A stretch of DNA of 64,000 nucleotides from Gammaproteobacteria bacterium (GTDB lineage: Bacteria > Pseudomonadota > Gammaproteobacteria > Burkholderiales > Burkholderiaceae_C). Both the position numbers and the translations under genes were made by a program. The stretch covers positions 275,034 through 339,033 of the forward strand of contig JAHJWB010000003.1 in assembly GCA_018828125.1 (NCBI GenBank). Direction: 5' to 3'. This document shows, in pieces, positions 11,267 through 57,208 of the stretch (within the stretch, counting starts at the first letter, position 1; each line of letters begins with the position of its first letter). Below the pieces are notes generated by a model. The model did no database searches. It was not told where the DNA came from and saw only the letters and a program-made list of their open reading frames with translations.

Positions 11267-11980
11267 ATGAAAATTACTCCAAAATTGATAGCTGCTAGCG
11301 CTTTACTGGTGTGCGCTGGAGCCGCTTTTTCTCAAAATTCCGCTGTGACCGAGCCGCGGAACGTGGTGCAGCTGTCGGCCACCGGCACGGTAGAAGTACA
11401 GCAAGACTTGCTGGTGCTGAACCTGTCCACCAACAAAGAAGCGGCCGACGCCGCCACCGTTCAGACCCAGCTCAAGCAAGCGCTGGACGCCGCCCTGACC
11501 GAAGCCAAGCGCAGCGCGCTGCCCGGGCAACTCGACGTGCGCACGGGCCCGTTTGGCCTATACCCACGCTACGGCAAGGACGGCAAGATCAACGGCTGGC
11601 AGGGCCGAGCCGAGCTGGTGCTGGAGGGGCGCGACTTTGCCCGCATCACCACCACCGCCGGCAAGATCCAGACCCTGGCGATCAGCAATGTGGCGTTTGG
11701 CCTGTCGCGCGAAGCGCGTGCCAAGGTCGAGACCGAGGCGCAGACCGAAGCCATTGAACAATTCAAGTCCCGCGCTGCTGAACTGGCCAAGGGTTTTGGC
11801 TTTAGCAACTACAGCCTGCGGGAAGTGGCCGTGAACAGCAATGAAATGGTGCCCGGGCCGCGCCCGCGCATGATGGCGGCGGAAGCCAAGATGGGCTCGT
11901 TCTCTGATTCGGCCGTGCCGGTGGAGGCAGGCAAGGCGCAGGTCATTGTGAACGTGTCGGGATCAGTGCAAATGCGCTGA
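11267..11980 (+). CDS. SIMPL (DUF541) domain periplasmic protein
   Basis: Signal peptide; LSATGTVEVQQD and VPVEAGKAQVIVNVSGSV patterns. Confidence 0.82.
   Translation: MKITPKLIAASALLVCAGAAFSQNSAVTEPRNVVQLSATGTVEVQQDLLVLNLSTNKEAADAATVQTQLKQALDAALTEAKRSALPGQLDVRTGPFGLYPRYGKDGKINGWQGRAELVLEGRDFARITTTAGKIQTLAISNVAFGLSREARAKVETEAQTEAIEQFKSRAAELAKGFGFSNYSLREVAVNSNEMVPGPRPRMMAAEAKMGSFSDSAVPVEAGKAQVIVNVSGSVQMR
11276..11340 (+). repeat. Palindromic repeat copy 1, inside the SIMPL signal peptide
   Basis: aaaattgATAGCTgctAGCGCTTtactggtgtGCGCTggagcc; encodes KLIAASALLVCAGAAF. Confidence 0.75.
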
Positions 11981-11990
11981 TGTATCAGTA

Positions 11991-12040
11991 AAATTAGCAC
12001 CTGGCGCTTACTGGATAGGCGCTAGGTGCTATTGTTTTTC
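11991..12040 (-). repeat. Palindromic repeat copy 2, intergenic between convergent genes
   Basis: Reverse complement atagcacctAGCGCCTatccagtAAGCGCCaggtgct. Confidence 0.8.
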
Positions 12041-12177
12041 ATCTATGACGCTTGGCACTAGTGGGGGCCCTGGCCAGCAAATGCCGCGCTAGGGCCACCT
12101 CCCGCGCAGGCGTCGTCCCCTTCCTGGCGAAACCGAGAGACGGGGAAGGCGGCGCGTAGACGCACTGAGGGTTGTTC

Positions 12178-12960
12178 TTACTGGGCCGCCCAGCCGCCGT
12201 CCATGTTCCACGCCACGCCACGCACGTTGTTGGCGGCAGGTGAACAGAAGAACACGGCCAACTCACCCAATTCTTCAGGCGTCGTGAACTGCATGGATGG
12301 TTCTTTTTCGCCCAGCAGCAGCTTTTTGGCGTCTTCGTTGGACAGGCCGTGCTCTACTGCTTTGGCGTCCACCTGTTTTTGCACCAGTGGCGTCAGCACC
12401 CAGCCTGGGCAGATCGCATTGCAAGTGACGCCCGTGGTGGCGTTCTCCAGGGCCGTGACCTTGGTCAAGCCTACGATGCCGTGTTTGGCGGCGACATAGG
12501 CCGACTTTTGCGCGGAGCCCACGAGGCCATGCACCGACGCCACGTTGATGATGCGGCCCCAGTTGGCGCTCTTCATGGCGGGCAATGCCAGACGGGACGT
12601 GTGGAACGCGCTGGTGAGGTTGATGGCGATCACCGAGTCCCAGCGCTCGACCGGGAAATCTTCGACATTGGCCACGTGCTGGATGCCGGCGTTGTTGACC
12701 AAAATGTCGACGCGGCCAAATTGGCTGGCGCTGTATTTCATCATGTCTTCAATGTCCGCCACACGGCTCATGTCAGCGCCGTGGTAAGCCACTTGGGCGC
12801 CCGCAGATTCACCAGCCGCCAGGACTTCGGCACGGGGACTGTCCACGTCGCCAAAGCCGTTGAGCACGATGTTGACGCCTTGGCGGGCCAGGGCCTTGGC
12901 GATGCCAAGACCAATACCACTGGTGGAGCCGGTGACGAGGGCAGTTTTGCCTTTCAGCAT
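12178..12960 (-). CDS. bdhA: D-3-hydroxybutyrate dehydrogenase (SDR)
   Basis: TGSTSGIG, NNAGIQHV, SVHGLV, YVAAKHG, NAICPGWVLTPLVQKQ, MDGGWAAQ. Confidence 0.93.
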   Translation of the reverse strand: MLKGKTALVTGSTSGIGLGIAKALARQGVNIVLNGFGDVDSPRAEVLAAGESAGAQVAYHGADMSRVADIEDMMKYSASQFGRVDILVNNAGIQHVANVEDFPVERWDSVIAINLTSAFHTSRLALPAMKSANWGRIINVASVHGLVGSAQKSAYVAAKHGIVGLTKVTALENATTGVTCNAICPGWVLTPLVQKQVDAKAVEHGLSNEDAKKLLLGEKEPSMQFTTPEELGELAVFFCSPAANNVRGVAWNMDGGWAAQ

Positions 12961-12985
12961 GAGAGTCTCTCCGAATGAATTACGA

Positions 12986-16343: not shown

Positions 16344-16420
16344 AGGCGCGTAGCTCAGCTGGTTAGAGCACCACCTTGACATGGTGGGGGTCGTTGGTTC
16401 GAGTCCAATCGCGCCTACCA
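16344..16420 (+). tRNA. tRNA-Val(GAC)
   Basis: Acceptor stem AGGCGCG/CGCGCCT, anticodon arm ccacc-tt-GAC-at-ggtgg, GTTCGAG T-loop, encoded CCA; TATAAT at 16319-16324. Confidence 0.97.
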
Positions 16421-20730: not shown

Positions 20731-20822
20731 AAAAATATGAGCTGCTAGCGCTTGAATCCATTGGGTTTCAGGTTGATTTGATATCGAAACCTATGTTTAT
20801 GAAGCGCTACCAGCTCCTATAT
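20731..20822. repeat. Inverted pair of palindromic repeat copies (3 and 4)
   Basis: tatgagctgctagcgctt (20736-20753) matches the reverse complement of 20802-20819 at 16/18 positions. Confidence 0.8.
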
Positions 20823-23760: not shown

Positions 23761-24315
23761 TTACACGCGCTTGCGGTATTCGCCGGTGCGGGTGTCGATT
23801 TCGATCTTGTCGCCTTGCGAGACAAACAGAGGCACGGGCACTTCAAAGCCGGTGGCGATCTTGGCGGGCTTGAGCACCTTGCCGGATGTGTCGCCCTTGA
23901 CGGCTGGCTCGGTCCAGGTGATTTCGCGTTCAACGCTGGTGGGCAGTTCGACCGAAATAGCCTTGCCGTCGTAGAACACCACTTCCAGCGTCATGCCGTC
24001 TTCCAAGTAGTTCAGTGCGTCGCCCATGTTTTCGGCTTCGACTTCGTACTGGTTGTATTCCGTGTCCATGCAGACATACATGGGATCGGCAAAGTAGGAG
24101 TAGGTGCACTCCTTCTTGTCCAGGATCACGTTGTCGATCTTGTCGTCGGCCTTGAACACGTTTTCGGTGCCGAAGTTGCCGATCAGGCTCTTGAGCTTCA
24201 TGCGCACGGTGGCTGCACCGCGGCCGCCGCGGGCGTATTCGGTCTTCAGGACCACCATGGGGTCCTTGCCGTGCATGATGACGTTGCCGGCGCGGATTTC
24301 TTGAGCGATTTTCAT
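23761..24315 (-). CDS. efp: Elongation factor P, Arg32 type
   Basis: [13 protein letters not shown] with R at position 32; [20 protein letters not shown]. Confidence 0.97.
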
Positions 24316-24465
24316 AGCAGGTTGCTTGGGTTGGGGCCGCTCAACGCGTGGGCTCGTGGTCTTCTGAGAGCAGAAGGCTCGCCTTGCCTATGCATGTTCC
24401 GCGGCGGGACTGCGCGGGTGCTCGACACCGGTGTGCCGTACCTGTTTTGCGCAAAGCCTCGGATT

Positions 24466-25620
24466 TTACCGTTTTTCGGCGGCAAAGCCCAAAAGTTGTG
24501 CGACGAGATCGTCTTGCCCCAAAAGGCGCGCGCGCGCAGCCTGAGTGCAGGCCGTCCATTCGGCCAATGTGGCGTCGTCAGGCAACTGCAGTGGTGCGCT
24601 GTCCAATCCGTTCCAGGTGGCATGAAACGCGCGCAGGGTCGGGGGCGCCTCCAGCCAGTCCAGAAACGCCATCAACTTGGCGTGGTGGGCGTTGTCATCT
24701 TGTGGGTAGATGTGCCAGACCAGCGCCTGTCCGGCCCACAGCGCCCGTACCAACGAATCCTCACCGCGCACGGCGTTGAAATCGCAGGCCCACAGCATCT
24801 CGTCAAATGCAGCTTGTGGGCGGTGGGGTAAATATGAAATTGATAGCTGATTGCGCTTACTGGATAAGCACTGGAAGCCATTTTGACTTGTATTTTCTGC
24901 AAGTGCCGACCGCACGGCGTGCGTGGGGCGGCCCGGAGTGACCAGTAGCTGCGTGGGGAGCGCCTGGCCTTGCTGCAGCAGGTCGGGCAACGCAGCGGGT
25001 TCGTAGCAAAACAGGGACATCCAGCGGTGTCCGGGCTCGACTTCACCCAGCCCGAATGCCGTTGCATGCGTGGCACGCCAGGCTGTCCGATCAAACCCTT
25101 CCCGCCGCGCCATCAGGTCCGGCTCGCGCAGCAATCCACCTGTTGCGGGAGTGAAGCCGGGGTAGAAAAACCAGCGCGTCCAGCCTGCCGCCGGGCCGGA
25201 CATGAGCAGCGAGGGCAGCCGGTGGTTGCGCTCCACGTAGCGCTCTGCCGACAGGTATTCAAGATTGATCCAAAGAGGTTGGAAGCCATTCTTTGGATGT
25301 TTTTGGCCTCTGGCGCTTGATGAATAAGCGCTGTAAGCTATAAATTCAGGAGCAATTTCACACCCGAACGCCTCCACCATCACATCGGGTGCGGGCTCGT
25401 CCGGGCCGGGCGGTGGCGAGCCCCAGGCGCGCAGCTCCACGCCGGGGCAGCCTTCGGGCGCCATCCACGCCAGGGCTGAGGCGTCATCCACCCACAGACG
25501 CACGCGATGGCCCCGGCCGGCCAATTGCGCCACCAGGCGCCAGCACACGCCGATGTCGCCAAAATTGTCGATCACGCGGCAGAAGACATCCCACTGCGAG
25601 GGAGGGACGGTAAGGTTCAT
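24466..25620 (-). CDS. earP: EF-P arginine rhamnosyltransferase
   Basis: FCRVIDNFGDIGVCWRL, WINLEYLSAE, FFYPGFT, VRGEDSLVRA, WHIYPQ. Confidence 0.96.
   Translation of the reverse strand: MNLTVPPSQWDVFCRVIDNFGDIGVCWRLVAQLAGRGHRVRLWVDDASALAWMAPEGCPGVELRAWGSPPPGPDEPAPDVMVEAFGCEIAPEFIAYSAYSSSARGQKHPKNGFQPLWINLEYLSAERYVERNHRLPSLLMSGPAAGWTRWFFYPGFTPATGGLLREPDLMARREGFDRTAWRATHATAFGLGEVEPGHRWMSLFCYEPAALPDLLQQGQALPTQLLVTPGRPTHAVRSALAENTSQNGFQCLSSKRNQLSISYLPHRPQAAFDEMLWACDFNAVRGEDSLVRALWAGQALVWHIYPQDDNAHHAKLMAFLDWLEAPPTLRAFHATWNGLDSAPLQLPDDATLAEWTACTQAARARLLGQDDLVAQLLGFAAEKR
24831..24897 (+). repeat. Palindromic repeat copy 5, inside earP (antisense orientation)
   Basis: gaaattgATAGCTgatTGCGCTTactggatAAGCACtggaagcc; read by earP as ENTSQNGFQCLSSKRNQLSISY. 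Confidence 0.8.
25281..25358 (-). repeat. Palindromic repeat copy 6, inside earP (sense orientation)
   Basis: Reverse complement tgctcctgaatttATAGCTtacAGCGCTTattcatcAAGCGCCagaggcc; encodes APEFIAYSAYSSSARGQK. Confidence 0.82.
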
Positions 25621-26522
25621 CGGGATGGCGTCGTGGTTGCTTGTGCACGCAAATGCTCAACCAGCAGCCGGGCGACGCTGGACAGCGATTCTTCAGACCG
25701 CACGCACAGTGACAGGCGACGCTGTGCCCAGGGTTCATTCAGTGTGACGGTGCGGATGGCGAGCGTGCCCTGGTACAGCGCGGCGCTGCCACGCGGCATC
25801 ACGCCTACGCCCAGCCCGGCGTTCACCATGAGACACAGCGCGTCGTAGCTCGTGACCTGGATACGCAACCGCAGCGGCAGGCCCGTTTCGGCTGCCGCGC
25901 GGGTCAGTTGGTTGTTGATGGCGCTGCCCGGGTGTGCGCCGACAAAGTCGTAGGGCAGGGCGTCTGCCAGCCGCACAGACTTGCGCCGTGCCAGCGCGTG
26001 GCCGGTGGGCACCACCAGCACCAATTCGTCGCTGCGATACGGAATCAGCGTCACGCGCTCGCCGTAAGTACCTTCGTTCAGGATGCCCACGTCGGCCGCG
26101 TTCTCGGCCACCGAGTGGGCGATTGCGCTGCTGATCTGCTCCTGCAGTCGCACATCCACCTGTGGGTGTTGGGCCAGAAAACTTTGCAGCTCGGCCGGCA
26201 GAAACTGTGTGATGGCAGAGATGTTGGCCACCACGCGCACATGGCCGCGCACGCCCGTGCCGTACTCGCGCATCTGCGTGGCAATGCCATCGAGGTCGTT
26301 CAGCACGCCACGCGCCAGGTTGAGCAGCGCAAACGCGGCGGCAGTGGGCTCGGTGCCCTTGTTGCTGCGCGTGAAAAGGGCCACGCGCAACGCGTCTTCC
26401 AGGTCGGCCAGGCGGCGGCTGACGGCCGAGGCGGCGATGTGCTCGCGTGCAGCCGCGGCGGCGATGGTGCTTTCTTCCATCACGGCGACGAACAGGCGCA
26501 GAGAGACGGGGTCGAGTTTCAT
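25617..26522 (-). CDS. LysR family transcriptional regulator
   Basis: MKLDPVSLRLF, HIAASAVSRRLADLE, LFTRSNKGTEPT; stop overlaps the earP ATG. Confidence 0.93.
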   Translation of the reverse strand: MKLDPVSLRLFVAVMEESTIAAAAAREHIAASAVSRRLADLEDALRVALFTRSNKGTEPTAAAFALLNLARGVLNDLDGIATQMREYGTGVRGHVRVVANISAITQFLPAELQSFLAQHPQVDVRLQEQISSAIAHSVAENAADVGILNEGTYGERVTLIPYRSDELVLVVPTGHALARRKSVRLADALPYDFVGAHPGSAINNQLTRAAAETGLPLRLRIQVTSYDALCLMVNAGLGVGVMPRGSAALYQGTLAIRTVTLNEPWAQRRLSLCVRSEESLSSVARLLVEHLRAQATTTPSR

Positions 26523-26668
26523 GAGGGCGTGATGGTAAGCCGTTTGCCAAATGCCATGCCGGTTTGCGATGGCGGCTTGTTGCATCAGCGTTTTGCAGTC
26601 GTGCGGACTGTGCGCATCATTCGCGCCAACAAGCCAAGGGCCCACGCCCGCAAGAGACAAACATTCCC

Positions 26669-27898
26669 ATGGATTCCATCGCCTCTCCCGCCGCGCTGCA
26701 AGGCGTTCGCGTCATCGAAATGGGCCAACTCATCGCCGGGCCGTTCTGCGGCAAGACGCTGGGCGAGTTTGGTGCCGACGTGATCAAGATCGAAGCCCCC
26801 GCGGACCCGAGCCGACCCGGTGCGTCGGGCGGCGACCCGCTGCGCAACTGGCGCCTCATCAAGGAAGGCACCTCCGTCTGGTGGCAGGTGCAGTCGCGCA
26901 ACAAGCGCTCGGTGGCGCTGGACCTGCGCCAGAAGGAAGGCCAGGCCATAGCCCGCCAGCTGATCGCCGAGGCCGATGTACTGGTCGAGAACTTCCGCCC
27001 CGGCACGCTCGAAGGCTGGGGCATGTCGCCCGAAGAACTGCATGCGCTCAACCCCGGCCTGGTGATGCTGCGCATCTCCGGCTACGGCCAGACCGGCCCC
27101 TACCGCGACCTGCCGGGCTTCGGCGCCATTGGTGAGGCCATAGGCGGCCTTCGCCACCTGACGGGCGAGCCGGGCCGCGTGCCGGTGCGCGTGGGGGTGT
27201 CGATTGGCGATACGCTGGCGGCGCTGCACGGCACCATCGGCGTGCTCACCGCGTTGTACCACCGCAAGGTCAACGGTGGCCAAGGACAGGTGATCGACGT
27301 GGCGCTGCACGAGGCGGTGTTCAACGTGATGGAAAGTTTGATCCCCGAATACAGCGCGTTTGGCGCCGTGCGCGAGGCCGCAGGCAGTGCGCTGCCGGGC
27401 ATTGCGCCCTCCAACGCCTACCCATGCACCGACGGCTGGGTGCTGGTGGCAGGCAATGGCGACAGCATCTTCAAGCGGCTGATGGATGCGATTGGCCGTG
27501 CGGACCTGGGGGCTGCCCCCGACCTGGGCGACAACGCAGGCCGCGTAGCGCGCGTGGCAGAAATTGACGCCGCTATTGGCGCGTGGAGCGCACAGCGCAC
27601 CGTGCAGCAGGTGCTGGACGCACTGGGCGCCGCCCGCGTCCCGGCGGGCAAGGTCTACACCGCCAAGGACATTGCTGAAGACCCGCACTACCGCGCCCGC
27701 GACATGCTGCTGACCCAGCAGACGCGCGACGGCTACAGCGTGGAAGTGCCGGGCATCGTGCCCAAGCTCTCGGCCACGCCGGGCACCATCCGCAGCAGCG
27801 CGCCGCACCTGGGCGATGACACCGATGCGGTTCTGGCCGAGGCCGGCTTGACTGTCGAACAGATCGCGCTGCTGCGCAGCAAGGGGGTGATTCAATGA
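26669..27898 (+). CDS. CaiB/BaiF family (class III) CoA transferase
   Basis: LIAGPFCG, RNKRSVALDL, ENFRPG, ISGYGQTGPY. Confidence 0.93.
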   Translation: MDSIASPAALQGVRVIEMGQLIAGPFCGKTLGEFGADVIKIEAPADPSRPGASGGDPLRNWRLIKEGTSVWWQVQSRNKRSVALDLRQKEGQAIARQLIAEADVLVENFRPGTLEGWGMSPEELHALNPGLVMLRISGYGQTGPYRDLPGFGAIGEAIGGLRHLTGEPGRVPVRVGVSIGDTLAALHGTIGVLTALYHRKVNGGQGQVIDVALHEAVFNVMESLIPEYSAFGAVREAAGSALPGIAPSNAYPCTDGWVLVAGNGDSIFKRLMDAIGRADLGAAPDLGDNAGRVARVAEIDAAIGAWSAQRTVQQVLDALGAARVPAGKVYTAKDIAEDPHYRARDMLLTQQTRDGYSVEVPGIVPKLSATPGTIRSSAPHLGDDTDAVLAEAGLTVEQIALLRSKGVIQ

Positions 27899-28878
27899 GT
27901 GCATCCAACTCGTTGTGGCAAGGGGCAAACCGCCGCATCCACATGCAGGAGGTCGGCCTGCGCGACGGCCTGCAGATGGAAAAGGCCTTTGTGCCCACGG
28001 CCGACAAGATCGCGCTGTGCAATGCGTTGTCGGCTGCCGGACTGTCCAAGATCGAGGTGACCTCGTTCACATCGCCCACGGCCATCCCTGCGCTCAAGGA
28101 TGCCGAAGTCGTGATGCGCGAGATCACGCGCCGCCCCGGCACCGTCTACACCGCGCTGGTGCCCAACCTGCGCGGGGCAGAGCGCGCCATCGAGTCGCGC
28201 ACGGACGAGCTGAACCTGGTGATGTCCGTCAGCGCCACACACAACCTTGCCAACCTGCGCATGACGCAGGAACAGTCGTTTGCGGCGCTGGCGCAGGTGG
28301 TGGCGCTGTCGCAGGGCGCCAATGTGGCGGTGAATGTGTCGCTGTCGTGCGTATTCGGATGCCCCATGGAAGGCGATGTGCCAGAGGCCGATGTGTTTGG
28401 ATGGGTGCAGCGTTTTGTGGATCGGGGCGTGCGCGGCATTGCGCTGTGTGACACCACGGGCATGGCCTATCCGACCCAAGTGCACCAGCTAACGTCCGTG
28501 GCCCGCGCACGCTGGCCGGGTGTGGAATTCACCCTGCATTTCCACAACACGCGCGGCATGGGGCTGGCCAATGTGCTGGCCGCCATCGACGGGGGAGCTG
28601 ACCGGTTCGATGCCTCGCTGGGCGGGCTGGGCGGCTGTCCGTATGCGCCGGGTGCCAGCGGCAATGTGTGCAGTGAGGAGGTCGTGCATGCGCTGGGGCT
28701 GATGGGATATGACACGGGCGTGGACCTGGACCAACTCGTGGCGGCGGCGCAGCTACTGCCTGCCTTCATCGGCCACGACATCCCGAGCCAGATTGCCAAG
28801 GCCGGTCCGCGCCTGGCGCTGCATCCGGTACCAGCCGATTTCGACGCGATCCGCGAGCGGGCGCTTGCGCGGCCCTGA
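27895..28878 (+). CDS. Hydroxymethylglutaryl-CoA lyase family protein
   Basis: EVGLRDGLQ, LCDTTG, HFHNTRG, GGLGGCPYAPGASGN. Confidence 0.92.
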   Translation: MSASNSLWQGANRRIHMQEVGLRDGLQMEKAFVPTADKIALCNALSAAGLSKIEVTSFTSPTAIPALKDAEVVMREITRRPGTVYTALVPNLRGAERAIESRTDELNLVMSVSATHNLANLRMTQEQSFAALAQVVALSQGANVAVNVSLSCVFGCPMEGDVPEADVFGWVQRFVDRGVRGIALCDTTGMAYPTQVHQLTSVARARWPGVEFTLHFHNTRGMGLANVLAAIDGGADRFDASLGGLGGCPYAPGASGNVCSEEVVHALGLMGYDTGVDLDQLVAAAQLLPAFIGHDIPSQIAKAGPRLALHPVPADFDAIRERALARP

Positions 28879-28912
28879 CGTTTTTATTCAGCAACAAAAA
28901 GGAGACAGAGAG

Positions 28913-29896
28913 ATGAATATCACCCGCAAACAATTCACTACCACCCTGATGCTCGGGGCATTGGCCGCCGCTGTGTCTACCGGAGCCTGGGCCCAAGGCT
29001 CCTACCCGACCAAAAATGTGACCATGGTGGTGCCCACCGCCGCAGGCGGCACCACCGACCTGTCGGCCCGTATGCTGGCCCAGGCGCTGGCTCCGGTGCT
29101 GGGCCAGTCGGTCATCGTGGACAACAAGGGCGGCGGCAACGGCAACATTGCCGCCAGCATCGTCAAACGCGCCGAGCCTGATGGCTACACCGTGTTCATG
29201 CAGTACTCGGGCTACCACGTCATCTCGCCCCACATCACCAAGCAAAAGCAGTGGGATCAGGCGGACTTTCAGCCGGTGGCCAATGTGATCTCGGCCCCGC
29301 AGATCATCGTGGTGCGCAACGACCTGCCCGTGAAAACGCTGGCCAAGCTGATCGCCTACGCCAAGGCCAACCCCGGCAAGCTCAACTACGCCTCGTCGGG
29401 CAATGGCTCGCTGCAGCATGTGACCGGTGCCATGCTGGAACAGCAAGGCGGTATCAAGATGGTGCACGTGCCCTACAAAGGCACCGGGCCCGCGCTCCAG
29501 GACCTGCTGGGCGGCCAGGTGGATCTGACCTTTGGTACGGCGCCGCCGTTCATGCCCCACATCGCCAGCGGCAAGCTGCGCGTGCTGGCGGTGACGGGCA
29601 AAGAGCGCTTGCCAAGCCTGCCCGACGTGCCTACCACCGCCGAGGCGGGCTACCCCAAGGTCGATGCGACGTCGTGGTTTGCGTTGTTTGTGCCCGCAGC
29701 GGTGCCCAAGCCGGTGGTGGATAAGCTCACGGCCGACATCCGTACCGTGGTGCAAAGTGCCGCGTTCAAGCAGAAGGCGTTGGAGCAGGGCGCCACGGCC
29801 GACTACCAGACCCCGGCGCAGCTGGGCGACAAGGTCAAGGCGGACCTTTCCAACTGGGCGTCGGTGGTGAAAAGCTCGAAGATCGAAGCAGAATAG
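28913..29896 (+). CDS. Bug/TctC substrate-binding protein
   Basis: GGAG RBS; signal peptide, VPTAAGGTTD, DNKGGGNG, HVPYKG. Confidence 0.93.
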   Translation: MNITRKQFTTTLMLGALAAAVSTGAWAQGSYPTKNVTMVVPTAAGGTTDLSARMLAQALAPVLGQSVIVDNKGGGNGNIAASIVKRAEPDGYTVFMQYSGYHVISPHITKQKQWDQADFQPVANVISAPQIIVVRNDLPVKTLAKLIAYAKANPGKLNYASSGNGSLQHVTGAMLEQQGGIKMVHVPYKGTGPALQDLLGGQVDLTFGTAPPFMPHIASGKLRVLAVTGKERLPSLPDVPTTAEAGYPKVDATSWFALFVPAAVPKPVVDKLTADIRTVVQSAAFKQKALEQGATADYQTPAQLGDKVKADLSNWASVVKSSKIEAE

Positions 29897-29898
29897 TG

Positions 29899-29956
29899 GT
29901 CAAACTGGCCGCCAGCGCTTTATGGATAAGCGCTGGTAGCTATTGTTTTGATAGTT
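29899..29956 (-). repeat. Palindromic repeat copy 7, intergenic
   Basis: Reverse complement ctatcaaaacaATAGCTaccAGCGCTTatccataAAGCGCTggcggcc. Confidence 0.85.
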
Positions 29957-29993
29957 TTCGTGCCTCGCAAGACATGGCGCCACAATACGCGCC

Positions 29994-32000: not shown

Positions 32001-32070
32001 GCGCCTGATGCGCCATGGCTAATATCGCACACCCCGCAATTCGCCGTGTTGCCATGACACAATCGCCGCC

Positions 32071-32637: not shown

Positions 32638-32640
32638 ATT

Positions 32641-32703
32641 CCAAGTCTTTTGTGTCGCTAGCGCTTGCTGGATAAGCGCTGGCAGCTATCTCTTCAGGAG
32701 CAT
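32641..32703 (-). repeat. Palindromic repeat copy 8; its end contains the RBS of the next gene
   Basis: Reverse complement tgctcctgaagagATAGCTgccAGCGCTTatccagcAAGCGCTagcg. Confidence 0.85.
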
Positions 32704-32706
32704 TCT

Positions 32707-34376: not shown

Positions 34377-34391
34377 GGATCAGTTTAGGTG

Positions 34392-34467: not shown

Positions 34468-34476
34468 CCACCGAAC

Positions 34477-34509
34477 AAAGGCGAACGTAAGTTCGCCTTT
34501 TGTTTTTTT
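34477..34509 (+). terminator. Intrinsic terminator after tRNA-Val
   Basis: aaaggcgaac-gtaa-gttcgccttt plus a T run. Confidence 0.85.
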
Positions 34510-34528
34510 GCCTTCTGAAAGATCGACC

Positions 34529-36460: not shown

Positions 36461-36508
36461 ACGTTTTGGCCTTGGAGTGAAAATCCCGGGCTATAATACA
36501 AAGCTACG

Positions 36509-36584
36509 GTGGCTGTAGCTCAGTTGGTAGAGTCCAGGATTGTGATTCCTGTTGTCGTGGGTTCGAGCCCCATCAGCCACCCCA
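36509..36584 (+). tRNA. tRNA-His(GTG)
   Basis: GTGGCTG/CAGCCAC acceptor, C discriminator with an encoded G-1 at 36508, anticodon GTG, CCA. Confidence 0.97.
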
Positions 36585-36591
36585 AATATGT

Positions 36592-36627
36592 AAAAGCCTT
36601 GCAACGTTCTGCGTTGCAAGGCTTTTT
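36592..36627 (+). terminator. Intrinsic terminator after tRNA-His
   Basis: aaaagccttgcaacg-ttctg-cgttgcaaggcttttt. Confidence 0.9.
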
Positions 36628-36756
36628 GCTTTTAGCCGACTGGAAATTCCCTGAACTTGAGTTCGCTCAGGTTTGTTGGTGACCAATTTCAAGGGTGTGG
36701 TCTTCACACGGCACGGCGCACCGCATACTGCATGCCCTACCTTTCAGGAGTTTCCG

Positions 36757-36960
36757 ATGAGCCTTGTGATTCGCGATGCGTCGCCCAGTGAAAAACGTGG
36801 TAACGCCATGTCCGCAGCCCTTGCCAAGGAGCAACTGGAATATGCGGTCCAGATCGTGCAGGAGGTTCTGCCCAAAAGCGCTGGGGATGGTGCTTTGATA
36901 GGTGCTGTGATGCAGGCGATCGCGATGAACTACGCCGCCGTTCCCCAGCCGAACCGTTAA
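36757..36960 (+). CDS. Small hypothetical protein (67 aa)
   Basis: CAGGAG RBS; helical-looking EQLEYAVQIVQEVL...LIGAVMQAIAMNYAA. Confidence 0.6.
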   Translation: MSLVIRDASPSEKRGNAMSAALAKEQLEYAVQIVQEVLPKSAGDGALIGAVMQAIAMNYAAVPQPNR

Positions 36961-37107
36961 CAGAGCGGAAGAGGCGAGGCCTCGGCGTCAATTTGAAGGA
37001 CCCTTGGTCGCTCTGAGCACTGCTACCGCAGTGTGACAAGGGCGATTTGTGTTGGATGCCGCAAGGAATTTAATGGTGCCTATGGAGCCAGCGCACAGAA
37101 ATGTGCT

Positions 37108-37184
37108 TGGCCTGCCCGGAGGGACTCGAACCCCCGACCTATAGCTTAGAAGGCTATTGCTCTATCCAGTTGAGCTACGGGCAG
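37108..37184 (-). tRNA. tRNA-Arg(TCT)
   Basis: CTGCCCG/CGGGCAG acceptor, atagc-ct-TCT-aa-gctat arm, CCA. Confidence 0.97.
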
Positions 37185-37371
37185 ATGGGCTTTCGGCTTT
37201 GGTGCCTACTCGCGGTGCGAAATATGACTTCCGCCGCTGCGTTGGGCGCAGTGCTGGGATCATACCCGGCCTGCGGTGCCGATCCTTCTGCTGCCGGCAC
37301 GATTTTGTAGTGGTGCGGGACTTGAGGTTATAACGGGAGCGCGCATCCGCGTATCCCTACTGTCCACTTCC

Positions 37372-39105
37372 ATGCCCCACAGCGTCGCACTCATCCACAC
37401 CATCGCCGCGGCGCTGGGACTGGCGCTTGCGTTGGGGTTTATTGCTACGCGCTTGCGGCTTCCGGCGTTGGTGGGCTACCTTTTGGCGGGAGTGGTGCTA
37501 GGGCCGTTCACTCCTGGTTTTGTGGCCGACGCTGCAATGGCGAGCCAGCTGGCGGAGATAGGGGTCATGCTGCTGATGTTCGGCGTTGGCCTGCATTTCT
37601 CGCTGGGTGACCTGTTGGCGGTGCGCAAGATCGCGGTTCCCGGAGCGGTTGTCCAGATGATGGTAGCAACGGCATTGGGAATGTCGCTGGCCACCTGGTG
37701 GGGATGGGGCTTGGGTGGCGCGCTGGTGTTCGGTCTTGCGCTTTCTGTGGCCAGCACGGTGGTGCTGTTGAGAGCGTTGGAGACGCTGGGTATTCTCGAT
37801 ACCCATACCGGCCGCATTGCTGTGGGATGGCTGGTGGTGGAAGACCTTGCCATGGTCTTGGTCCTGGTGTTGTTGCCGCCGCTGGCGGGCTGGCTGGGCG
37901 GCACCACTGCGGAGGTGGATGGCGCGACGCTTTGGCAGACCCTGGGTTGGACCTTGCTTCAGGTTGGCGGGTTTGTAGCGCTGATGCTTTTGGTGGGGCG
38001 TCGTTTATTCCCTTGGGTTCTTTGGCAGGTTGCGCGCACAGGATCGCGTGAGTTGTTCACATTGTGCGTGGTGGCTGCGGCCGTAGGCATCGCTTTTGGG
38101 TCTGCAGCATTGTTTGGCGTGTCGTTCGCTTTGGGCGCATTTTTTGCGGGCATGGTGATGCGCGAGTCGGAGTTCAGCCACCGCGCAGCCCAGGAGTCGC
38201 TTCCGTTGCGAGACGCTTTTGCCGTACTTTTTTTCGTGTCGGTCGGCATGTTGTTCAACCCTGCCGTGCTGTGGGACCGCCCCCTTCAAGTGATCGCGGT
38301 GGGGGCGATCATCATGGTGGGAAAGACATTGGCTGCCGCGGCACTGGTACTGGCGTTTCGATACCCCCTCAACACCGCACTCACCGTATCTGCCAGCCTG
38401 GCGCAGATCGGTGAGTTTTCGTTCATTCTGGTGGCGCTTGGGTCTTCACTGGGGTTGCTCCCGCCCGAAGGGGCAAGCCTGGTATTGGCCGGGGCGCTGT
38501 TTTCCATGGCGCTCAATCCCTTGCTTTTCCATGCCATTGCCCCGTTGCAGGCCTGGTTGCTCGCGCGGTCAGCTTTGGCCCGTCGGCTGGAGCAGCGCGA
38601 TGATCCGTTGGCGGAGTTGCCGATGAGCACGGATTCACGTTATCTCGCGCGGCAGGTGGTCTTGGTGGGGTATGGCCGGGTGGGGCGTCGTGTGGCGAGC
38701 ACGTTGGCGGCAAGCGACATTCCATTTGTGGTCGCTGAGCAAAACCGCGAACTGGTAGAAACATTGCGCGCTGCTGGTATTGCAGCTGTATTCGGCGATG
38801 CCACCGATCCAGCGGTGTTGATCCAGGCCCATATCGCACGGGCGGCCATGCTGGTGATCGCGACTCCGGACACCCTGAATGTGCGGCAGATCATTGAAAC
38901 TGCCAGAACGCTGAACCCCGCCGTTGAAACGGTGGTCCGCAGCCAGGGTGAGGCAGAAGCCCGTGTTTTGCGGCAGGATTGGGACAGCACCGTTTTTGTC
39001 GCCGACGAAGCGCTGGCGCAAGCGATGTCAAGGCATGTGTTGGAGCGGACGGAGTCGCGCTTGGCGCGACACACCTCACCAGCACCGCTGCACGAGCGGG
39101 GATGA
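37372..39105 (+). CDS. CPA2 family cation:proton antiporter with C-terminal TrkA_N domain (YbaL/Kef-like)
   Basis: LVGYLLAGVVLGP, EIGVMLLMFGVGL, WLVVEDL, QIGEFSF, GYGRVG. Confidence 0.9.
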   Translation: MPHSVALIHTIAAALGLALALGFIATRLRLPALVGYLLAGVVLGPFTPGFVADAAMASQLAEIGVMLLMFGVGLHFSLGDLLAVRKIAVPGAVVQMMVATALGMSLATWWGWGLGGALVFGLALSVASTVVLLRALETLGILDTHTGRIAVGWLVVEDLAMVLVLVLLPPLAGWLGGTTAEVDGATLWQTLGWTLLQVGGFVALMLLVGRRLFPWVLWQVARTGSRELFTLCVVAAAVGIAFGSAALFGVSFALGAFFAGMVMRESEFSHRAAQESLPLRDAFAVLFFVSVGMLFNPAVLWDRPLQVIAVGAIIMVGKTLAAAALVLAFRYPLNTALTVSASLAQIGEFSFILVALGSSLGLLPPEGASLVLAGALFSMALNPLLFHAIAPLQAWLLARSALARRLEQRDDPLAELPMSTDSRYLARQVVLVGYGRVGRRVASTLAASDIPFVVAEQNRELVETLRAAGIAAVFGDATDPAVLIQAHIARAAMLVIATPDTLNVRQIIETARTLNPAVETVVRSQGEAEARVLRQDWDSTVFVADEALAQAMSRHVLERTESRLARHTSPAPLHERG

Positions 39106-39172
39106 AAAAACATATCAAAATGGGCTGTGGCGCTTTATAGATAAGCGCTAACAGCTATCAATTTGATAGTTT
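39103..39172 (-). repeat. Palindromic repeat copy 9, between convergent genes
   Basis: Reverse complement ctatcaaattgATAGCTgttAGCGCTTatctataAAGCGCCacagccc. Confidence 0.85.
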
Positions 39173-39389
39173 TTCGACTTATGTAGGTTTACCGTGACTG
39201 TTGCTTGGTGGTGGGCACGCCGTCTGCAGCCCCACCGAACGAGACCTTGTTTGCTCGTTGGTGATTGCTTGTCGCGGCTATTTCTTCAATGCCAACTGTT
39301 GCTGCGCCGCAGGCGGCGCCTTCCTTGCAGAGTGCAGTCTCCCGCGGAAGGCCAGCAAGCGCCATGCGCTCACCGGGCCATGGCAAAAC

Positions 39390-41178
39390 TTATTCGTTTT
39401 CTTCAAACACCAGAGAGGGGGTAGACATGACCCGTGCTGTTTGTCCCAGGTCTTCGATCAAGCGATTGGCAAAGTAGCTGTTCTGTGTGTCTGGTTCCAG
39501 CGCGGCGACGGCCAAGTTGGCGCGCGGCTGGTTCAGCGGCACATAAAAACTACCTGCGGGAACGTCGATGGCGCTGCGGACCGGCGACACCTGTACACGC
39601 ACAATATCTGAACTCCCGGCAATCGTGCCGATCACGTCTTGCCGGTCGCCCGATTCGCGTGCAGTCTCGCGGTAGGTGTCAGCGAGTACCGAGCCAGACT
39701 CTGCGATGCGCAGCACCTGCAGTCCGAGCAGCCTGAGGCGTTCGACCACGTCCGTGGAACTTGCCGCCAACCAGTAGCCGCAGGGGCGCGCGCGCGTTTT
39801 CGTGGGTCTTAGGGTCAAGGATGAATTCCATTCCACACGAATGGGCTTGTCCGCTCCAGTTTCGGGGTCTAGAAAGTCCAGATCGCGTTGGGTGGGCGTG
39901 GCTGCAGCTTCGACCACCACTTGATCGCGACACGCCTGAGCGCTGATGTCGCGCACCACGAAGGACCGCACCTGCTCCAAGTTGGCCGCCCGGTCCGCCG
40001 TGCTGCGCAGTGCGCTGGTGATGGCTGTGACCTGCGCATGCACGCGCCGCTGAATGTGCATGCGACCGATGCCTACACCCCGCGTTTCGATCAGAAGGCT
40101 CACGGTGTTTTTGAGGCCGTTGACATTGCGCCCGGTGTCGGGTTGCGTACCACCCATCGAAATACGTTTGTCATCCGGGTTGGTCGACGTGGTGTAGTAC
40201 CAGTCGCTGGTGAGACCCTGGCCCTTGAGCGCTGCCACCATGGGTTGGTGGTACCACTCCTGGGAGGCCTTGGTCAGAAACTCTGGGTAGTTGGCGGTGG
40301 TGGTGTACTGCAGCAACGCGTCATAACGCTGAATAGCGTTGAATTTCTGCAGGTAACGGCCCACCACGGTGTATTCATGGGCGTCGACGACCAGGATGGG
40401 GCGGTAGTCGTTGACCACCTGGGCCAAGGCCCGGGCTTCGGGGGTGTTCAGCAGCAGATGATCGCGGTTCATATCCACGCCATTGGCGGTGACTCGCGTG
40501 TTGGCTGCCGCACCATCCGGGTTGGCGCGGGGCACCACGACGACATTGATCCGGTCGAGTAGTGGCTCCAGCAGACCTTGCGTGAGCTCACGACTGACCA
40601 CCAGCAGCGCCTCACCGCCTGCCGGTTCATTGCCATGCTGTTGGCCTATCAGCACCACGGTCGGACGACCGCTGGATTCCAGTGTTGCAGGGTCGGTGTT
40701 CGTCGCGCGTGTGGCTACGACACCGAGAATAGGTTCGCCGCGTTGCGACATCCCCAGATTGAGCAACTTGGTACGCGTGGGGCCGGAGGGAGTGGAGGCG
40801 GTCAGTGAGCGCAGCCATTGGCCCAACTCGGCATTGGTAGTGAAGGCCCGGCGGTCTTGCCCCAGACCCGGTGTGCTATAGGCCATCGAAGGATCTGGGA
40901 ACCGTGCTGCCACCGCTGCGCCGTAGGGGGGCGCCATCGGCCCTTCGTTTTGCACCAACAATGGCGCTGGAGGGGGCAGGGGGCTGGCTACAACTGCAGG
41001 CTGCTGCGGCTGCTGGCCGAGGGGTGTTGGTACCACCGTACCCTGCTGCACGCGTGGCACCGGCGCTGGGGCCGTTGGCCGCTGGGTGGTTGGTGAGGAT
41101 GGCCAGGGCGGGAGTGGGGTGCTCGAACAAGCTGTCAGCAGCACCGCTATCAGGACCGCGGTTGCTTTCCAGGGCATG
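39390..41178 (-). CDS. M14 family zinc carboxypeptidase-like lipoprotein
   Basis: Lipobox LLTAC, Pro-rich linker, QHGNEP, NPDG, DMNRDH, DAHE; start could be at 41255. Confidence 0.85.
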
Positions 41179-45318: not shown

Positions 45319-46980
45319 ATGGCTCAATACGTATTTTCCATGAACCGCGTCGGCAAGATCGTGCCGCCCAAGCGCCAGATTCTTAAAGACATTTCCCTGA
45401 GTTTCTTCCCCGGCGCCAAGATCGGCGTGCTGGGCACGAACGGCTCCGGCAAGTCCACCTTGCTCAAGATCATGGCCGGCGTGGACAAGGAAATTGAAGG
45501 CGAAGCGATCCCGATGGCAGGCCTGAACATCGGGTACCTGCCCCAGGAACCCCAACTCGACCCTGAACAGACCGTACGGGAAAGCGTGGAAGCAGCCATG
45601 GGTCGCGTTTTCACCGCCAAGGCCCGCCTGGAAGAGGTGTACACCGCCTACGGTGCGGAAGATGCCGATTTTGACGCCCTGGCAGCGGAGCAGGCCGAGC
45701 TGGAAGCCATCATTGCAACCGCCGGCACTGACTCTGAGCACCAGCTCGAAATCGCGGCCGATGCCCTGCGCCTGCCGCCGTGGGATGCCAAGGTGGGTTT
45801 GTTGTCTGGCGGTGAAAAGCGCCGTGTGGCTCTGTGCCGCCTGCTGTTGTCCAAGCCCGACATGTTGCTGCTTGACGAACCCACCAACCACTTGGACGCC
45901 GAATCCGTGGACTGGCTGGAGCAATTTTTGCAGCGCTACTCGGGCACTGTGGTGGCCATTACCCATGACCGCTACTTCCTCGATAACGCCGCAGAGTGGA
46001 TTTTGGAGCTGGACCGTGGCTCCGGTATCCCCTACAAGGGCAACTACAGCGACTGGCTGACCCAGAAGCAGGCCCGCCTGGAGCAAGAGCAAAAGGGTGA
46101 GGAGTCGCGCGCCAAAGCCCTGAAGAAGGAGCTCGAATGGTCGCGCCAAAACCCCAAAGCTCGCCAGGCCAAGAGCAAGGCCCGTCTGGCCCGCTTCGAG
46201 GAGCTGTCGGACTTCGAGTACCAAAAACGCAACGAAACTAACGAAATTTTCATTCCCGTGGCCGACCGCCTGGGTCATGAAGTGATTGAGTTCGAAAACG
46301 TCACCAAGTCCTTTGGCGACCGCGTGCTTATCGACAACTTGAGCTTCAAGGTGCCCGCAGGCGCCATCGTCGGCATCATCGGCCCCAACGGTGCCGGTAA
46401 ATCCACCCTGTTCCGCATGATCGCCGGCAAACAGGCGCCCGACAGCGGCACTGTCAAGATCGGCTCGACCGTAAAGATGGCGTTTGTGGACCAGACCCGT
46501 GACGATCTCTCGGACGAAAAGACTGTTTGGGAAGACGTCTCTGGCGGCCTCGATATTCTCAACGTCGGCAAGTTCCAAATGGCCAGTCGCGCTTATTGCG
46601 GCCGTTTCAACTTCAATGGTGGGGACCAGCAAAAGAAGGTCGGCATGCTGTCGGGGGGGGAGCGTGGGCGTCTGCACTTGGCTAAAACCCTGATTGCGGG
46701 CGGCAACGTCCTGATGCTTGATGAGCCATCCAACGATCTGGATGTGGAAACCTTGCGTGCGCTCGAAGATGCGCTGCTCGAATTCGCTGGCTCCATCATG
46801 GTCATCAGCCATGATCGCTGGTTCCTGGATCGCATCGCCACGCATATCCTGGCCTGCGAAGGCGACAGCCAATGGACGTTTTTCGACGGTAACTACCAGG
46901 AATACGAAGCGGACAAGAAAAAGCGTCTGGGTGAAGAGGGCGCTAAACCCAAGCGGATGCGTTTCAAGGCACTCAAATAA
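45319..46980 (+). CDS. ettA: Energy-dependent translational throttle ABC-F ATPase
   Basis: MAQYVFSMNRV, two ABC cassettes (GSGKST/LSGGE/LDEPTN and GAGKST/LSGGE/LDEPSN), RQAKSKARL linker. Confidence 0.96.
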   Translation: MAQYVFSMNRVGKIVPPKRQILKDISLSFFPGAKIGVLGTNGSGKSTLLKIMAGVDKEIEGEAIPMAGLNIGYLPQEPQLDPEQTVRESVEAAMGRVFTAKARLEEVYTAYGAEDADFDALAAEQAELEAIIATAGTDSEHQLEIAADALRLPPWDAKVGLLSGGEKRRVALCRLLLSKPDMLLLDEPTNHLDAESVDWLEQFLQRYSGTVVAITHDRYFLDNAAEWILELDRGSGIPYKGNYSDWLTQKQARLEQEQKGEESRAKALKKELEWSRQNPKARQAKSKARLARFEELSDFEYQKRNETNEIFIPVADRLGHEVIEFENVTKSFGDRVLIDNLSFKVPAGAIVGIIGPNGAGKSTLFRMIAGKQAPDSGTVKIGSTVKMAFVDQTRDDLSDEKTVWEDVSGGLDILNVGKFQMASRAYCGRFNFNGGDQQKKVGMLSGGERGRLHLAKTLIAGGNVLMLDEPSNDLDVETLRALEDALLEFAGSIMVISHDRWFLDRIATHILACEGDSQWTFFDGNYQEYEADKKKRLGEEGAKPKRMRFKALK

Positions 46981-55733: not shown

Positions 55734-55799
55734 GGCCGCCGATTATGGTGCCCGGGCGCACGAGCTGGTTTGTGCGACGTCAGTCAGCCGGCAGGGGGC

Positions 55800-56156
55800 T
55801 CACGGGGCCTTTTCGATCTGCTTGACGTGGTAAGCGCCATTGACCTGCTCGGCCCGAAAGCGCACCTTGTCACCCTGGTTCAAGTCACCCACCACGCTGG
55901 CGTCCGCCACGCGAAAGACCATGGTCATGGGCGGCATTTCCAGGTTCTTGATCTCGCCGTGTCTCAGGGTGAGGCGCAGTGTGCGCGGGTCCCAGCGGGT
56001 GATCTCGCCTTCGCTCATTTCCACCTGCGCCGCCGACGGGGCCGGATTGTGGCTGTTGTGGCTATCGGAGGCTGCAGGGGTGGGGGCTTGCGCCAGAGCG
56101 GGCCCTGCGCCCAGGAGAAGCAGGCTGGCGACCAGTGGGATGGACAGGATTTTCAT
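55800..56156 (-). CDS. CusF-like periplasmic copper-binding protein
   Basis: Signal peptide; TLRHGEIKNLEMPPMTMVF. Confidence 0.9.
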   Translation of the reverse strand: MKILSIPLVASLLLLGAGPALAQAPTPAASDSHNSHNPAPSAAQVEMSEGEITRWDPRTLRLTLRHGEIKNLEMPPMTMVFRVADASVVGDLNQGDKVRFRAEQVNGAYHVKQIEKAP

Positions 56157-56692
56157 GTCGATGCCTTCTTGTTGTAGCTTTTGAAAACACGGGCGCTGCC
56201 GTCGCGCGCCACCAGCAGCACGTCGTACGGGTCACGCCGGTCGCCATAAGCAGGGCCGTCCATGCCCGGCGAGCCCACGGGCATGCCAGGCACGGCCAGG
56301 CCCAGGGCCTTCGGCTTTTGCTGCAGCAGGGTGCGCACATCGCTGGCGGGCACGTGGCCTTCCACCACATAGCCGCCGACGAGGGCGGTGTGGCACGAGC
56401 CCAGCTTTTGCGGCAGACCCAGGCGCGCGCGCACCGCGTTGTTGCCGGTGTCGTGCACCTTCACGGCAAAGCCGTTGGCCTGCATGTGGTCCACCCAGTC
56501 TTGGCAGCAGCCGCAGTTGGGGTCTTTCCACACCTCCAGCGGCGTGGGGGTGTTGGTGGCTGCGCGGGTCATGCTTGGCAGCAGTGCGGCGGCTACACCC
56601 GCGCCCAGCAAAGGCAGGGTGGTGCTGAGCCATTGGCGGCGGGCAGGGTGGGCTGCGGTGGATGCGGAGCGTGAATTGCGTGAGTTGGTCAT
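56153..56692 (-). CDS. DUF411 / CopG-like metal-binding protein
   Basis: Twin-Arg-like RRQWL leader, KDPNCGCC, SCHTA, EGHVP, LAVPGMPVGSPGM. Confidence 0.88.
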   Translation of the reverse strand: MTNSRNSRSASTAAHPARRQWLSTTLPLLGAGVAAALLPSMTRAATNTPTPLEVWKDPNCGCCQDWVDHMQANGFAVKVHDTGNNAVRARLGLPQKLGSCHTALVGGYVVEGHVPASDVRTLLQQKPKALGLAVPGMPVGSPGMDGPAYGDRRDPYDVLLVARDGSARVFKSYNKKAST

Positions 56693-56710
56693 GGCGTGTC
56701 TCTCCTGGAG

Positions 56711-57208
56711 TTATTGGTTACGGGGCAGCACGGTGATGGTTCCTGTCATGCCGGCCTGGTAGTGGCCAGGGATCAGGCAGGCAAAGTCAAATTTCCCGGC
56801 GCGGTTGAAGTGCCACACGATGTCGCCGGTCTTGGCCGCCGCCACGTGGGCCATGTAGGGCTCGTCATGTTCCATGCCGGGGTGCTTTTTCATCATCTCG
56901 GCGTGCTGGTCCAGCTCGGCCTTGGTGCCGATCACGATCTCGTGCAACACTTTGCCTTTGTTCTCTACAAGCAGCCGTACGGTGTCGCCCTCGCGCACTT
57001 CGATGTGATTCGGCGCAAAGCGCATGTCATCGCTCATGCGGACGGTGATGGTGCGGCGCACGGCCTTGGCGTCGCCTGCGATGCCCCAGTCCTTTTGCTC
57101 CTTGACCACCGGGCTGTTCGATGCGGTGTGGTGGGCGTTTTCATGGCCAAAAGAGGTGATGGCGCTTATCCACAAAGCGCAAGCAGCTATCAATTTAATA
57201 GTATTCAT
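56711..57208 (-). CDS. Cupredoxin (CopI-like)
   Basis: DDMRF, HEIVIG, His/Met-rich loop, FACLIPGHYQAGM. Confidence 0.88.
   Translation of the reverse strand: MNTIKLIAACALWISAITSFGHENAHHTASNSPVVKEQKDWGIAGDAKAVRRTITVRMSDDMRFAPNHIEVREGDTVRLLVENKGKVLHEIVIGTKAELDQHAEMMKKHPGMEHDEPYMAHVAAAKTGDIVWHFNRAGKFDFACLIPGHYQAGMTGTITVLPRNQ
57140..57208 (-). repeat. Palindromic repeat copy 10, forming the cupredoxin signal peptide
   Basis: ATGaatactattaaattgATAGCTgctTGCGCTTtgtggatAAGCGCCatc; encodes MNTIKLIAACALWISAIT. Confidence 0.82.

Follow-up and report, generated by a model that had tools for sequence, protein, structure and literature searches.

Repetitive extragenic palindromes (REPs) and the REPINs of E. 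coli, Pseudomonas and Stenotrophomonas are short imperfect palindromes, present in hundreds of copies and not accompanied by target duplications; REPINs are long-lived and vertically inherited. A survey of REPs takes a GTAG or CGTC tag as their definition and describes intragenic REPs in other bacteria as biased to repair genes (PMC3733652). Here we describe a dispersed palindromic repeat in a stretch of 64,000 nucleotides (the window) of an Acidovorax (Comamonadaceae) draft genome (5.18 Mb, 23 contigs, 63.3% GC; labelled G000). Like REPs it is a short imperfect palindrome with hundreds of copies and no target duplications, which lies after genes, between convergent and co-oriented open reading frames, and in some genes, notably those for replication and repair. 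As in REPINs the inverted doublet is the unit and singlets are rare (18 of 757 half-sites), and the repeat is likewise old and vertically inherited. In distinction to the REP/RAYT systems (RAYT, REP-associated tyrosine transposase) it carries no GTAG or CGTC head, is AT-rich in a GC-rich genome, and occurs as single copies, not in clusters or bacterial interspersed mosaic elements (BIMEs). The sole transposase-like gene of the Y1 type scores below the RAYT cut-off, is flanked by the repeat on one side and is present regardless of the repeat. For a REP the coding fraction is unusually high (about 17%), and the coding copies are mostly length-neutral. The family, its anatomy, distribution and age, and the co-linearity and nucleotide-level conservation of its copies were observed directly; on balance it is probably an old hairpin family of REP/REPIN-like type, restricted to a clade, inherited vertically and held by selection on the nucleotide sequence itself.

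A second group for comparison are the palindromic elements of Rickettsia (RPEs) and Wolbachia. There, as here, a palindrome is read in frame within functional genes, N-termini included, and in stop-free frames only. RPEs measure 100-150 bp, add 30-50 residues as clear insertions and belong to the reduced AT-rich genomes of obligate intracellular bacteria, whereas the Acidovorax repeat, 45-70 nt long, lengthens the protein by 0-7 residues in most of the cases tested and is unrelated to them in sequence. The DNA uptake sequences (DUS) of Neisseria and the uptake signal sequences (USS) of Pasteurellaceae are similar in being genome-wide motifs, length-neutral in coding DNA, found in weakly constrained protein segments, spaced more evenly than random, and forming at gene ends inverted pairs which resemble terminators. 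They are, however, single motifs of 9-12 nt occurring about once per kb, while the repeat described here is a long palindrome occurring about once per 8 kb. No link to competence genes was found, ComEC being intact in 19 of 19 congeners, both repeat-rich and repeat-poor.

Traces of the family have been seen before. In A. ebreus TPSY the motif GCTTAT(N)5AAGCG, with 44 convergent, 4 divergent and 59 co-oriented contexts, was listed among selected potential novel motifs and not characterised as a repeat family (PMC5217627). It agrees with the repeat in this work in its core, in its spacing and in its preference for convergent over divergent contexts. The motif ATAGCT(N)22CAAAAG, listed for Polaromonas naphthalenivorans CJ2 in the same paper, has ATAGCT in common with it and 14% of its copies in genes. 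Both were left as unexplained pairs, without a full element, a family definition or an analysis of translated copies, age or orthology. The Betaproteobacterial repeat element (BRE) of Bordetella and Comamonadaceae (PMC3110155) also has some copies in coding sequence; it was rejected as a candidate, being about 90 bp long, 69% GC, often tandem and of low copy number. The kind of element is already known from intragenic REPs (PMC3733652) and RPEs. Different here, besides the features named above, are the recurrent signal peptides, the combination of length-neutrality with nucleotide-level conservation, and the lack of demonstrable RAYT linkage.

An earlier, sequence-only reading of the window had proposed a dispersed AT-rich palindromic family with ten copies at nine loci. 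Its core pattern, ATAGCT-N3-WGCGCTT-N7-AAGCGC, scanned with up to two mismatches, gave 9 matches at 8 window loci against none in 100 shuffles; the locus at 24843/24853 was matched on both strands. The eight core-pattern loci stand, while the two copies placed at 20731 are one composite element. The check proposed with that reading, a profile from the copies and a genome scan against shuffled sequence, gave a large excess: an nhmmer profile seeded with the window copies and iterated on the whole genome returned 1,223 strand-hits at 645 distinct loci, with a density of one per 7.6 kb, and no hit in a genome simulated with a third-order Markov model. With a consensus GC content of 42.5% in a genome of 63.3%, the family is real and AT-rich as proposed. 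The copies in the window, with their nhmmer scores, and the gene pair around two of them are the following:

11282..11323, plus strand: copy in the signal peptide of a periplasmic SIMPL/DUF541 protein (CDS 11267-11980, plus strand), 31.5 bits, peptide MKITPKLIAASALLVCAGAAFSQN
11991..12038, minus strand: extragenic copy within a convergent spacer, matched by nhmmer on each strand
20732..20815, plus strand: composite long-loop element between tandem genes, made of a left arm, a 46-nt inner hairpin (GGGTTTCAGG...CGAAACC) and a right arm
23761-24315, minus strand: efp, adjoining earP
24466..25620, minus strand: EarP gene (EF-P arginine rhamnosyltransferase), host of two copies, Pfam PF10093, E 1.9e-115
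24837..24884, plus strand: EarP site 2, translated, 38.3 bits, residues about 245-262, SQNGFQCLSSKRNQLSISY
25304..25347, minus strand: EarP site 1, translated, 41.0 bits, residues about 94-107, IAYSAYSSSARGQK
29906..29949, minus strand: extragenic copy, 40.1 bits, 10 nt past the stop of a TctC-family gene (28913-29896, plus strand)
32656..32691, minus strand: extragenic copy between tandem genes, 35.0 bits, preceding stop at 32637
39118..39164, minus strand: extragenic copy in a convergent spacer, 41.9 bits, 13 nt past the stop (39105) of a Na+/H+ exchanger/TrkA-N gene
57152..57196, minus strand: copy in the signal peptide of a cupredoxin (CDS 56711-57208, minus strand), 35.2 bits, peptide MNTIKLIAACALWISAITSFG

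The unit of the family is the whole imperfect palindrome, since half-sites are almost never found alone (the 18 solo ones among 757 half-site hits are weak). It spans about 60-70 nt, with information content above background over about 70 nt, and is composed of AT-rich outer arms, ATAGCT-N3-WGCGCTT, a 7-nt loop and AAGCGCW-N3-GGCY. The consensus reads AATTACTACTAAATTGATAGCTGCTAGCGCTT-N7-AAGCGCTAGAGGCCAATTTGACTCAAAATTT, with outer arms AAATTG/CAATTT and with AAAAT flanking the stem on the 5' side and ATTTT on the 3' side. The conserved GTAG or CGTC tag is absent from it, the head being GATAGCT and the stem containing CTAGCGC. Pairing of the inner stem GCGCTT/AAGCGC holds in 96-98% of copies; the outer stem is more irregular, with a T.G position in 84%. 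The N7 spacing is kept in 430 of the 431 copies with exact arms. Two loop sequences predominate, GATGGAT in 221 copies and ATCCATC in 151, and form two mirror classes relative to the asymmetric outer arms; this flip/flop, seen for example in the window copies 24837, 29906 and 39118, suggests inversion of the loop between the arms. Linkage of subfamilies by mutual information was uninformative, as adjacent columns and the loop flip dominate the signal. The composite subfamily carries between its arms a second hairpin, GGnTTCAGAT...ATCTGAAnCC, in place of the 7-nt loop, and is found at about 18 loci of the genome, all of them intergenic (e.g. C6:489417, C12:194053 and C18:156192). Of the 12 pairs in its inner helix, 7 show changes on both sides; pairing amounts to 75%, compared with about 34% in slid controls.

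Two details attached to the core by the sequence-only reading have to be reassigned. The palindrome ctatcaa-w-ttgatag corresponds simply to the element's own left AT-rich arm. The left-end TGCTCCTGA does not belong to the repeat at all. At 25304 it consists of ancestral EarP codons (IAPE), and beside the 32656 copy it is the complement of an AGGAG ribosome-binding site, 7 nt before the ATG at 32707 (window 32692-32707), so that this copy abuts the translation start region of the next gene, a member of the isopropylmalate/isocitrate dehydrogenase family starting at 32707.

The copies are old. Their mean pairwise identity is 63%, with a median of 82% to the nearest neighbour and a maximum of 92%. 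Target-site duplications (TSDs) were not detected, matches of 3-8 nt between the flanks being no commoner than in permuted flanks. In a relative about 90% identical over 60 kb (G038) all eight window loci and the composite are at the same places. The family is not a MITE (miniature inverted-repeat transposable element), having neither TSDs nor presence/absence variation at the eight window loci; the REP-like part of the earlier description, a dispersed palindromic family that is translated in places, holds. Its picture of an element being recruited by insertion does not agree with copies which are vertically inherited, have no TSDs, are at most 92% identical and are kept at eight of eight loci. 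In the spacer around position 26645 (between genes 25617-26522, minus strand, and 26669-27898, plus strand) G038 and, at the same place, the genome G032 carry an additional 107-nt GC-rich element. It is an unrelated hairpin (C6 about 45516-45626 in G038), absent here, and the 125-nt stretch containing it folds at -60 kcal/mol. As this element is present in G038 and absent here, insertion polymorphism is visible at this divergence.

At the 29906 locus an orthologous site is found in all 26 congeners aligned. The stem there has undergone compensatory changes (CCAG/CTGG, CTAG/CTAG, TGCAG/CTGCA and CTTG/CAAG), and in G002, a species with 0 pattern hits genome-wide, the site is a decayed, GC-richer hairpin. 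Counts of the pattern vary from one congener to another between 0 and about 500. In the tree of the PurL locus the low-copy species G015, G018 and G006 are nested among copy-rich ones, which points to decay in place as the cause of the low counts. Across the family as defined in GTDB (150 genera), about 20 genera have at least 10 hits of the strict pattern and about 116 have none. G002 and G009 had been considered as empty-site controls and were rejected, as they look like lineages with decayed sites and not like lineages that never had them.

The four copies which the sequence-only reading had placed in frame inside coding sequences are 11282 (SIMPL/DUF541), 24837 and 25304 (EarP) and 57152 (cupredoxin), and translated copies are far more numerous than these, with about 111 in predicted coding sequences genome-wide, many of the hosts being genes for housekeeping or repair. 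For 70 of the 111 the coding score is positive on both flanks. Hosts identified by Pfam and NCBIfam include EarP (two copies), HrpA, PurL, a DnaE-like polymerase, PepN, MutS, MutL, a UvrD-like helicase, a formate-dehydrogenase/NuoG-like protein, a DUF3683 FAD-oxidase, a 2-oxoacid dehydrogenase E1 and ComEC. The UvrA host is of double length (C1:42118-48066, L092; 1,982 aa), the UvrA model being matched in four stretches, and its copy, around residue 1022, is close to where the two halves join. In the ComEC/Rec2 gene (C11:277402-280053) the copy at C11:278742-278783 falls within the PF03772 match. Both orientations are used in coding copies and three reading frames occur, IAxSAYxSSARGQ in 49 copies, PLALDGKALxAI in 54 and LQRLxDKRxQLSISY in 8, a usage that tracks the number of stop codons per consensus frame. 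About 18 copies, those of the SIMPL protein and the cupredoxin included, form signal-peptide-like N-termini, basic at the start and hydrophobic in the core, one of them with a lipobox-like LFSAC. The SIMPL Pfam domain begins at residue 34. In the cupredoxin the N-terminus can be taken as a leader because the Pfam copper-binding domain starts at residue 47-59. EarP matches PF10093 over profile positions 1-371 of 372, continuously over residues 10-380.

Insertion of a whole element would be expected to add 15-22 residues. Length was compared with orthologs case by case for six of the 70 internal copies, and among the window and tested copies EarP site 2 is the only one that resembles a simple insertion: Paracidovorax and some others are 12-20 residues shorter at this point, while Diaphorobacter, Simplicispira, Comamonas granuli and Alicycliphilus share the peptide. 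Orthologs without a profile match at EarP site 1 have there a co-linear segment of almost the same length (difference about 0-4), e.g. IAPDFAASIAHSTIAAGRK. Across the genus the SIMPL leader does not vary in length and is homologous residue for residue; it measures about 29-30 aa in most of 29 other genera; where repeat-poor species read CTG ATC GCC ACC GCC GCC CTG CTG, the repeat reads TTG ATA GCT GCT AGC GCT TTA CTG. In PurL the distance between anchors is 69 nt in 15 congeners, 57 nt in G009 and 81 nt in G002, and the loop is 7 residues longer than in Salmonella PurL. The net change in MutS relative to Neisseria MutS is about 0, and the PepN copy adds 7 residues. The MutL copy overlies the motif W.AQAAIKFEE, which is also found in G002 and G009. 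In the cupredoxin the leader is repeat-like in 13 congeners, whereas G009 and G002 have different, GC-rich leaders. For the SIMPL leader, the MutL motif and MutS against Neisseria, then, orthologs poor in the repeat or apparently free of it carry the same peptide segment without a difference in length, an outcome which had been named beforehand as speaking against recruitment of the element as protein sequence.

Conservation inside genes goes beyond the peptide. Where species agree in a residue, they also agree in its codon in 0.70-0.74 of cases within the repeat, compared with 0.61 for the remainder of the gene. The codons of the repeat are rare ones, with a mean relative frequency of 0.24-0.34 against 0.43-0.50, examples being ATA (0.03), GCT (0.08), TTA (0.01) and AGA (0.01); at EarP site 1 ATA, GCT and AGA are kept across species. 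Inside genes the constraint thus acts on the nucleotide sequence itself.

With the gene calls of a dicodon gene finder written for this genome (4,517 genes covering 87.5% of the sequence), the 645 loci divide into 472 intergenic copies (73%), 62 overlapping a gene end and 111 inside predicted genes (about 17%). Of the convergent spacers 30% contain a copy, compared with 11% of the tandem and 6% of the divergent ones, nearly always one per spacer and at a median of 33 nt past the stop codon. The orientation of copies is unbiased with respect to both transcription (156 against 137) and GC skew (274 of 554). Along the genome the copies are more evenly spaced than random (coefficient of variation, CV, 0.84 against 0.96-1.00, sd 0.04) with few close pairs. 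Extragenic copies fold stably on both strands, at -21 to -31 kcal/mol. The 11991 copy lies between the SIMPL stop at 11980 and a gene for a short-chain dehydrogenase (12178-12960, minus strand), whose 3' end faces it; its strands fold at -31.4 and -23.5 kcal/mol (z about -5), those of the 39118 copy at -28.2 and -26.3 kcal/mol (z -6.8 and -5.8), and those of the 29906 copy, which lies 45 nt before the next gene and is terminator-like in a simple terminator scan, at -26.9 and -20.8 kcal/mol. After the SIMPL stop about 20 species have a copy of the family, at varying distance, and in three species its place is taken by a GC-rich terminator of canonical form, T-run included. Position and shape suggest that extragenic copies act as two-way gene-end hairpins, in termination and/or protection of 3' ends. 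Hairpins inside genes are as strong as intergenic ones at equal profile score; a seeming weakness of stems in coding copies was not significant once profile score was controlled.

In our preferred interpretation, single extragenic copies would serve as two-way hairpins at gene ends, above all between convergent genes, and a factor or process recognising the repeat sequence would maintain the family. Within genes the repeat is read in its stop-free frames and gives loops, linkers and repeatedly signal peptides, roles in which the copies may have been tolerated or co-opted. Far from being recent insertions, coding copies are ancient and have orthologs in other genera, most of them overlying codon-for-codon segments of nearly the same length in repeat-less relatives; lineages no longer maintaining the family preserve the peptide, but their copies drift where they stand towards GC-rich codons. 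Copies may have originated by either of two routes, insertion followed by trimming or short-patch templated conversion: the composites (at about 18 loci) together with EarP site 2 indicate that units can be copied or inserted, and the length-neutral codon-for-codon copies indicate replacement or "writing". Several observations weigh against this interpretation. Outer-stem positions covary little among paralogs and many unpaired positions are conserved, which argues for recognition of the sequence by a factor and not for a hairpin alone. The T-run past the stem is short and set apart, a simple terminator scan flags some copies only, and selection for termination leaves the retention of the motif inside genes unexplained. 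The true length gain of EarP site 2 means that insertion happens at least sometimes. Finally, AAAnTnATAGCTGC is found in the SIMPL leaders of some zero-hit genera, and the absence of the repeat may be overstated.

One alternative is a REP/REPIN- or MITE-like element which a Y1 (RAYT-type) or other transposase inserts into genes, where it is then recruited as protein. It is true that the window holds no mobilising transposase, as the sequence-only reading had stated. The genome has a single Y1 transposase-like gene (PF01797; C22:47845-48543, 232 aa), which reaches 74.7 bits on NF047646, the NCBIfam model "REP-associated tyrosine transposase", with a cut-off of 80. The repeat follows directly after its stop codon and none precedes the gene, so that a RAYT gene flanked by the repeat, which had been suggested as something to look for, is represented only by this one Y1 gene with a 3' copy. 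Of 151 genomes of the family, 140 have the gene, mostly once only and irrespective of the repeat, of which the majority give no pattern hit; it looks like a domesticated, vertically inherited transposase. With its one-sided repeat, its near-universal presence irrespective of the repeat and a score below the NCBIfam cut-off, it was rejected as the mobiliser. The idea of an inserting element draws further on the palindromic REPIN-like architecture with its rare solo halves, on the lack of TSDs, which fits enzymes of the IS200/IS605 Y1 type, on the 12-20 residues by which EarP site 2 exceeds the outgroups, and on the composites, whose common inner hairpin at about 18 loci implies copying of a unit. 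The bias of intragenic REPs to repair genes (PMC3733652) also has its parallel in the hosts MutS, MutL, UvrA, DnaE-like polymerase and UvrD-like helicase. Against it stand not only the position and distribution of the Y1 gene but also the lack of near-identical copies, the lack of gain or loss at eight loci over about 10% divergence, the 0-7 residues added by most tested coding copies where 15-22 would be expected, the missing GTAG or CGTC tag, and the single, unclustered copies. Insertion by such a transposase seems unlikely to us as the main origin of the family.

If no selfish insertion is involved, the repeat could be a genome-wide DNA signal which a directional process, either short-patch conversion templated by other copies or a molecular drive as in uptake sequences, writes length-neutrally into permissive positions. 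Gene ends, loops, linkers and leaders would then merely be the places where the signal is tolerated. This would suit the length-neutral and co-linear coding copies whose peptide recurs in GC-rich codons in repeat-poor relatives, the conserved rare codons, the fall of copy number by decay in place and not by excision, the even spacing (CV 0.84 against 0.96-1.00) with few close pairs, and the absence of orientation bias relative to transcription or GC skew. Repair genes among the hosts recall the uptake sequences of Neisseria, which reportedly occur in repair genes. An uptake signal proper was rejected, as half-sites do not stand alone and every congener, whether poor or rich in the repeat, has an intact ComEC. 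More generally, a palindrome of 45-70 nt is unlike uptake signals of 9-12 nt, its density of about 1 per 8 kb is far below theirs, point mutation could hardly assemble a motif of about 35-40 bits, no converting enzyme was identified, and the composite subfamily and EarP site 2 testify to copying or insertion; we regard this alternative as doubtful. In a more specific form, a sequence-directed process, targeted short-patch conversion or an uptake-like drive acting on a dimeric or hairpin site, would impose a palindromic genome signal on existing DNA without change of length. That version is tentatively conceivable, and with it, as tentatively, the rewriting of housekeeping codons to rare synonymous or conservative ones and their decay in place where the process is lost. 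An ordinary transcription-factor site with a large regulon, or a by-product of restriction-modification at AGCGCT, would account for the rigidly spaced inverted-repeat core and for the 6-bp palindrome AGCGCT in each arm. With 645 sites, copies in only 6% of the divergent, promoter-bearing spacers against 30% of the convergent ones, about 17% of copies inside genes and conservation over about 70 nt, beyond any operator, it is very improbable; the transcription-factor site had been named beforehand as the finding that would undo the proposed family, and the same figures speak against it.

The hairpin family is an abundant and so far uncharacterised repeat of Acidovorax and related Comamonadaceae, which marks gene ends and shapes protein sequence, with about 18 secretion leaders in one genome spelled by one DNA element. 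Congeners with about 0-500 copies, in which the same sites are decaying, offer a natural experiment for finding the maintaining factor. The rare codons conserved for non-protein reasons in housekeeping and repair genes bear on models of codon usage and on dN/dS scans, and more broadly on the coexistence of constraints at the DNA level and the protein level. Should the length-neutral copies have been written and not inserted, this would be a new way for repeats to spread through coding DNA.

Searches against Rfam 15 returned tRNAs only, both for the whole window at the gathering threshold and for positions 24000-40000 at E<=1, with no family matching the repeat. The window contains four tRNA genes (16344-16417, 34392-34464, 36509-36581 and 37111-37184), and its most AT-rich part is the region of 34-37 kb, with 55% GC.

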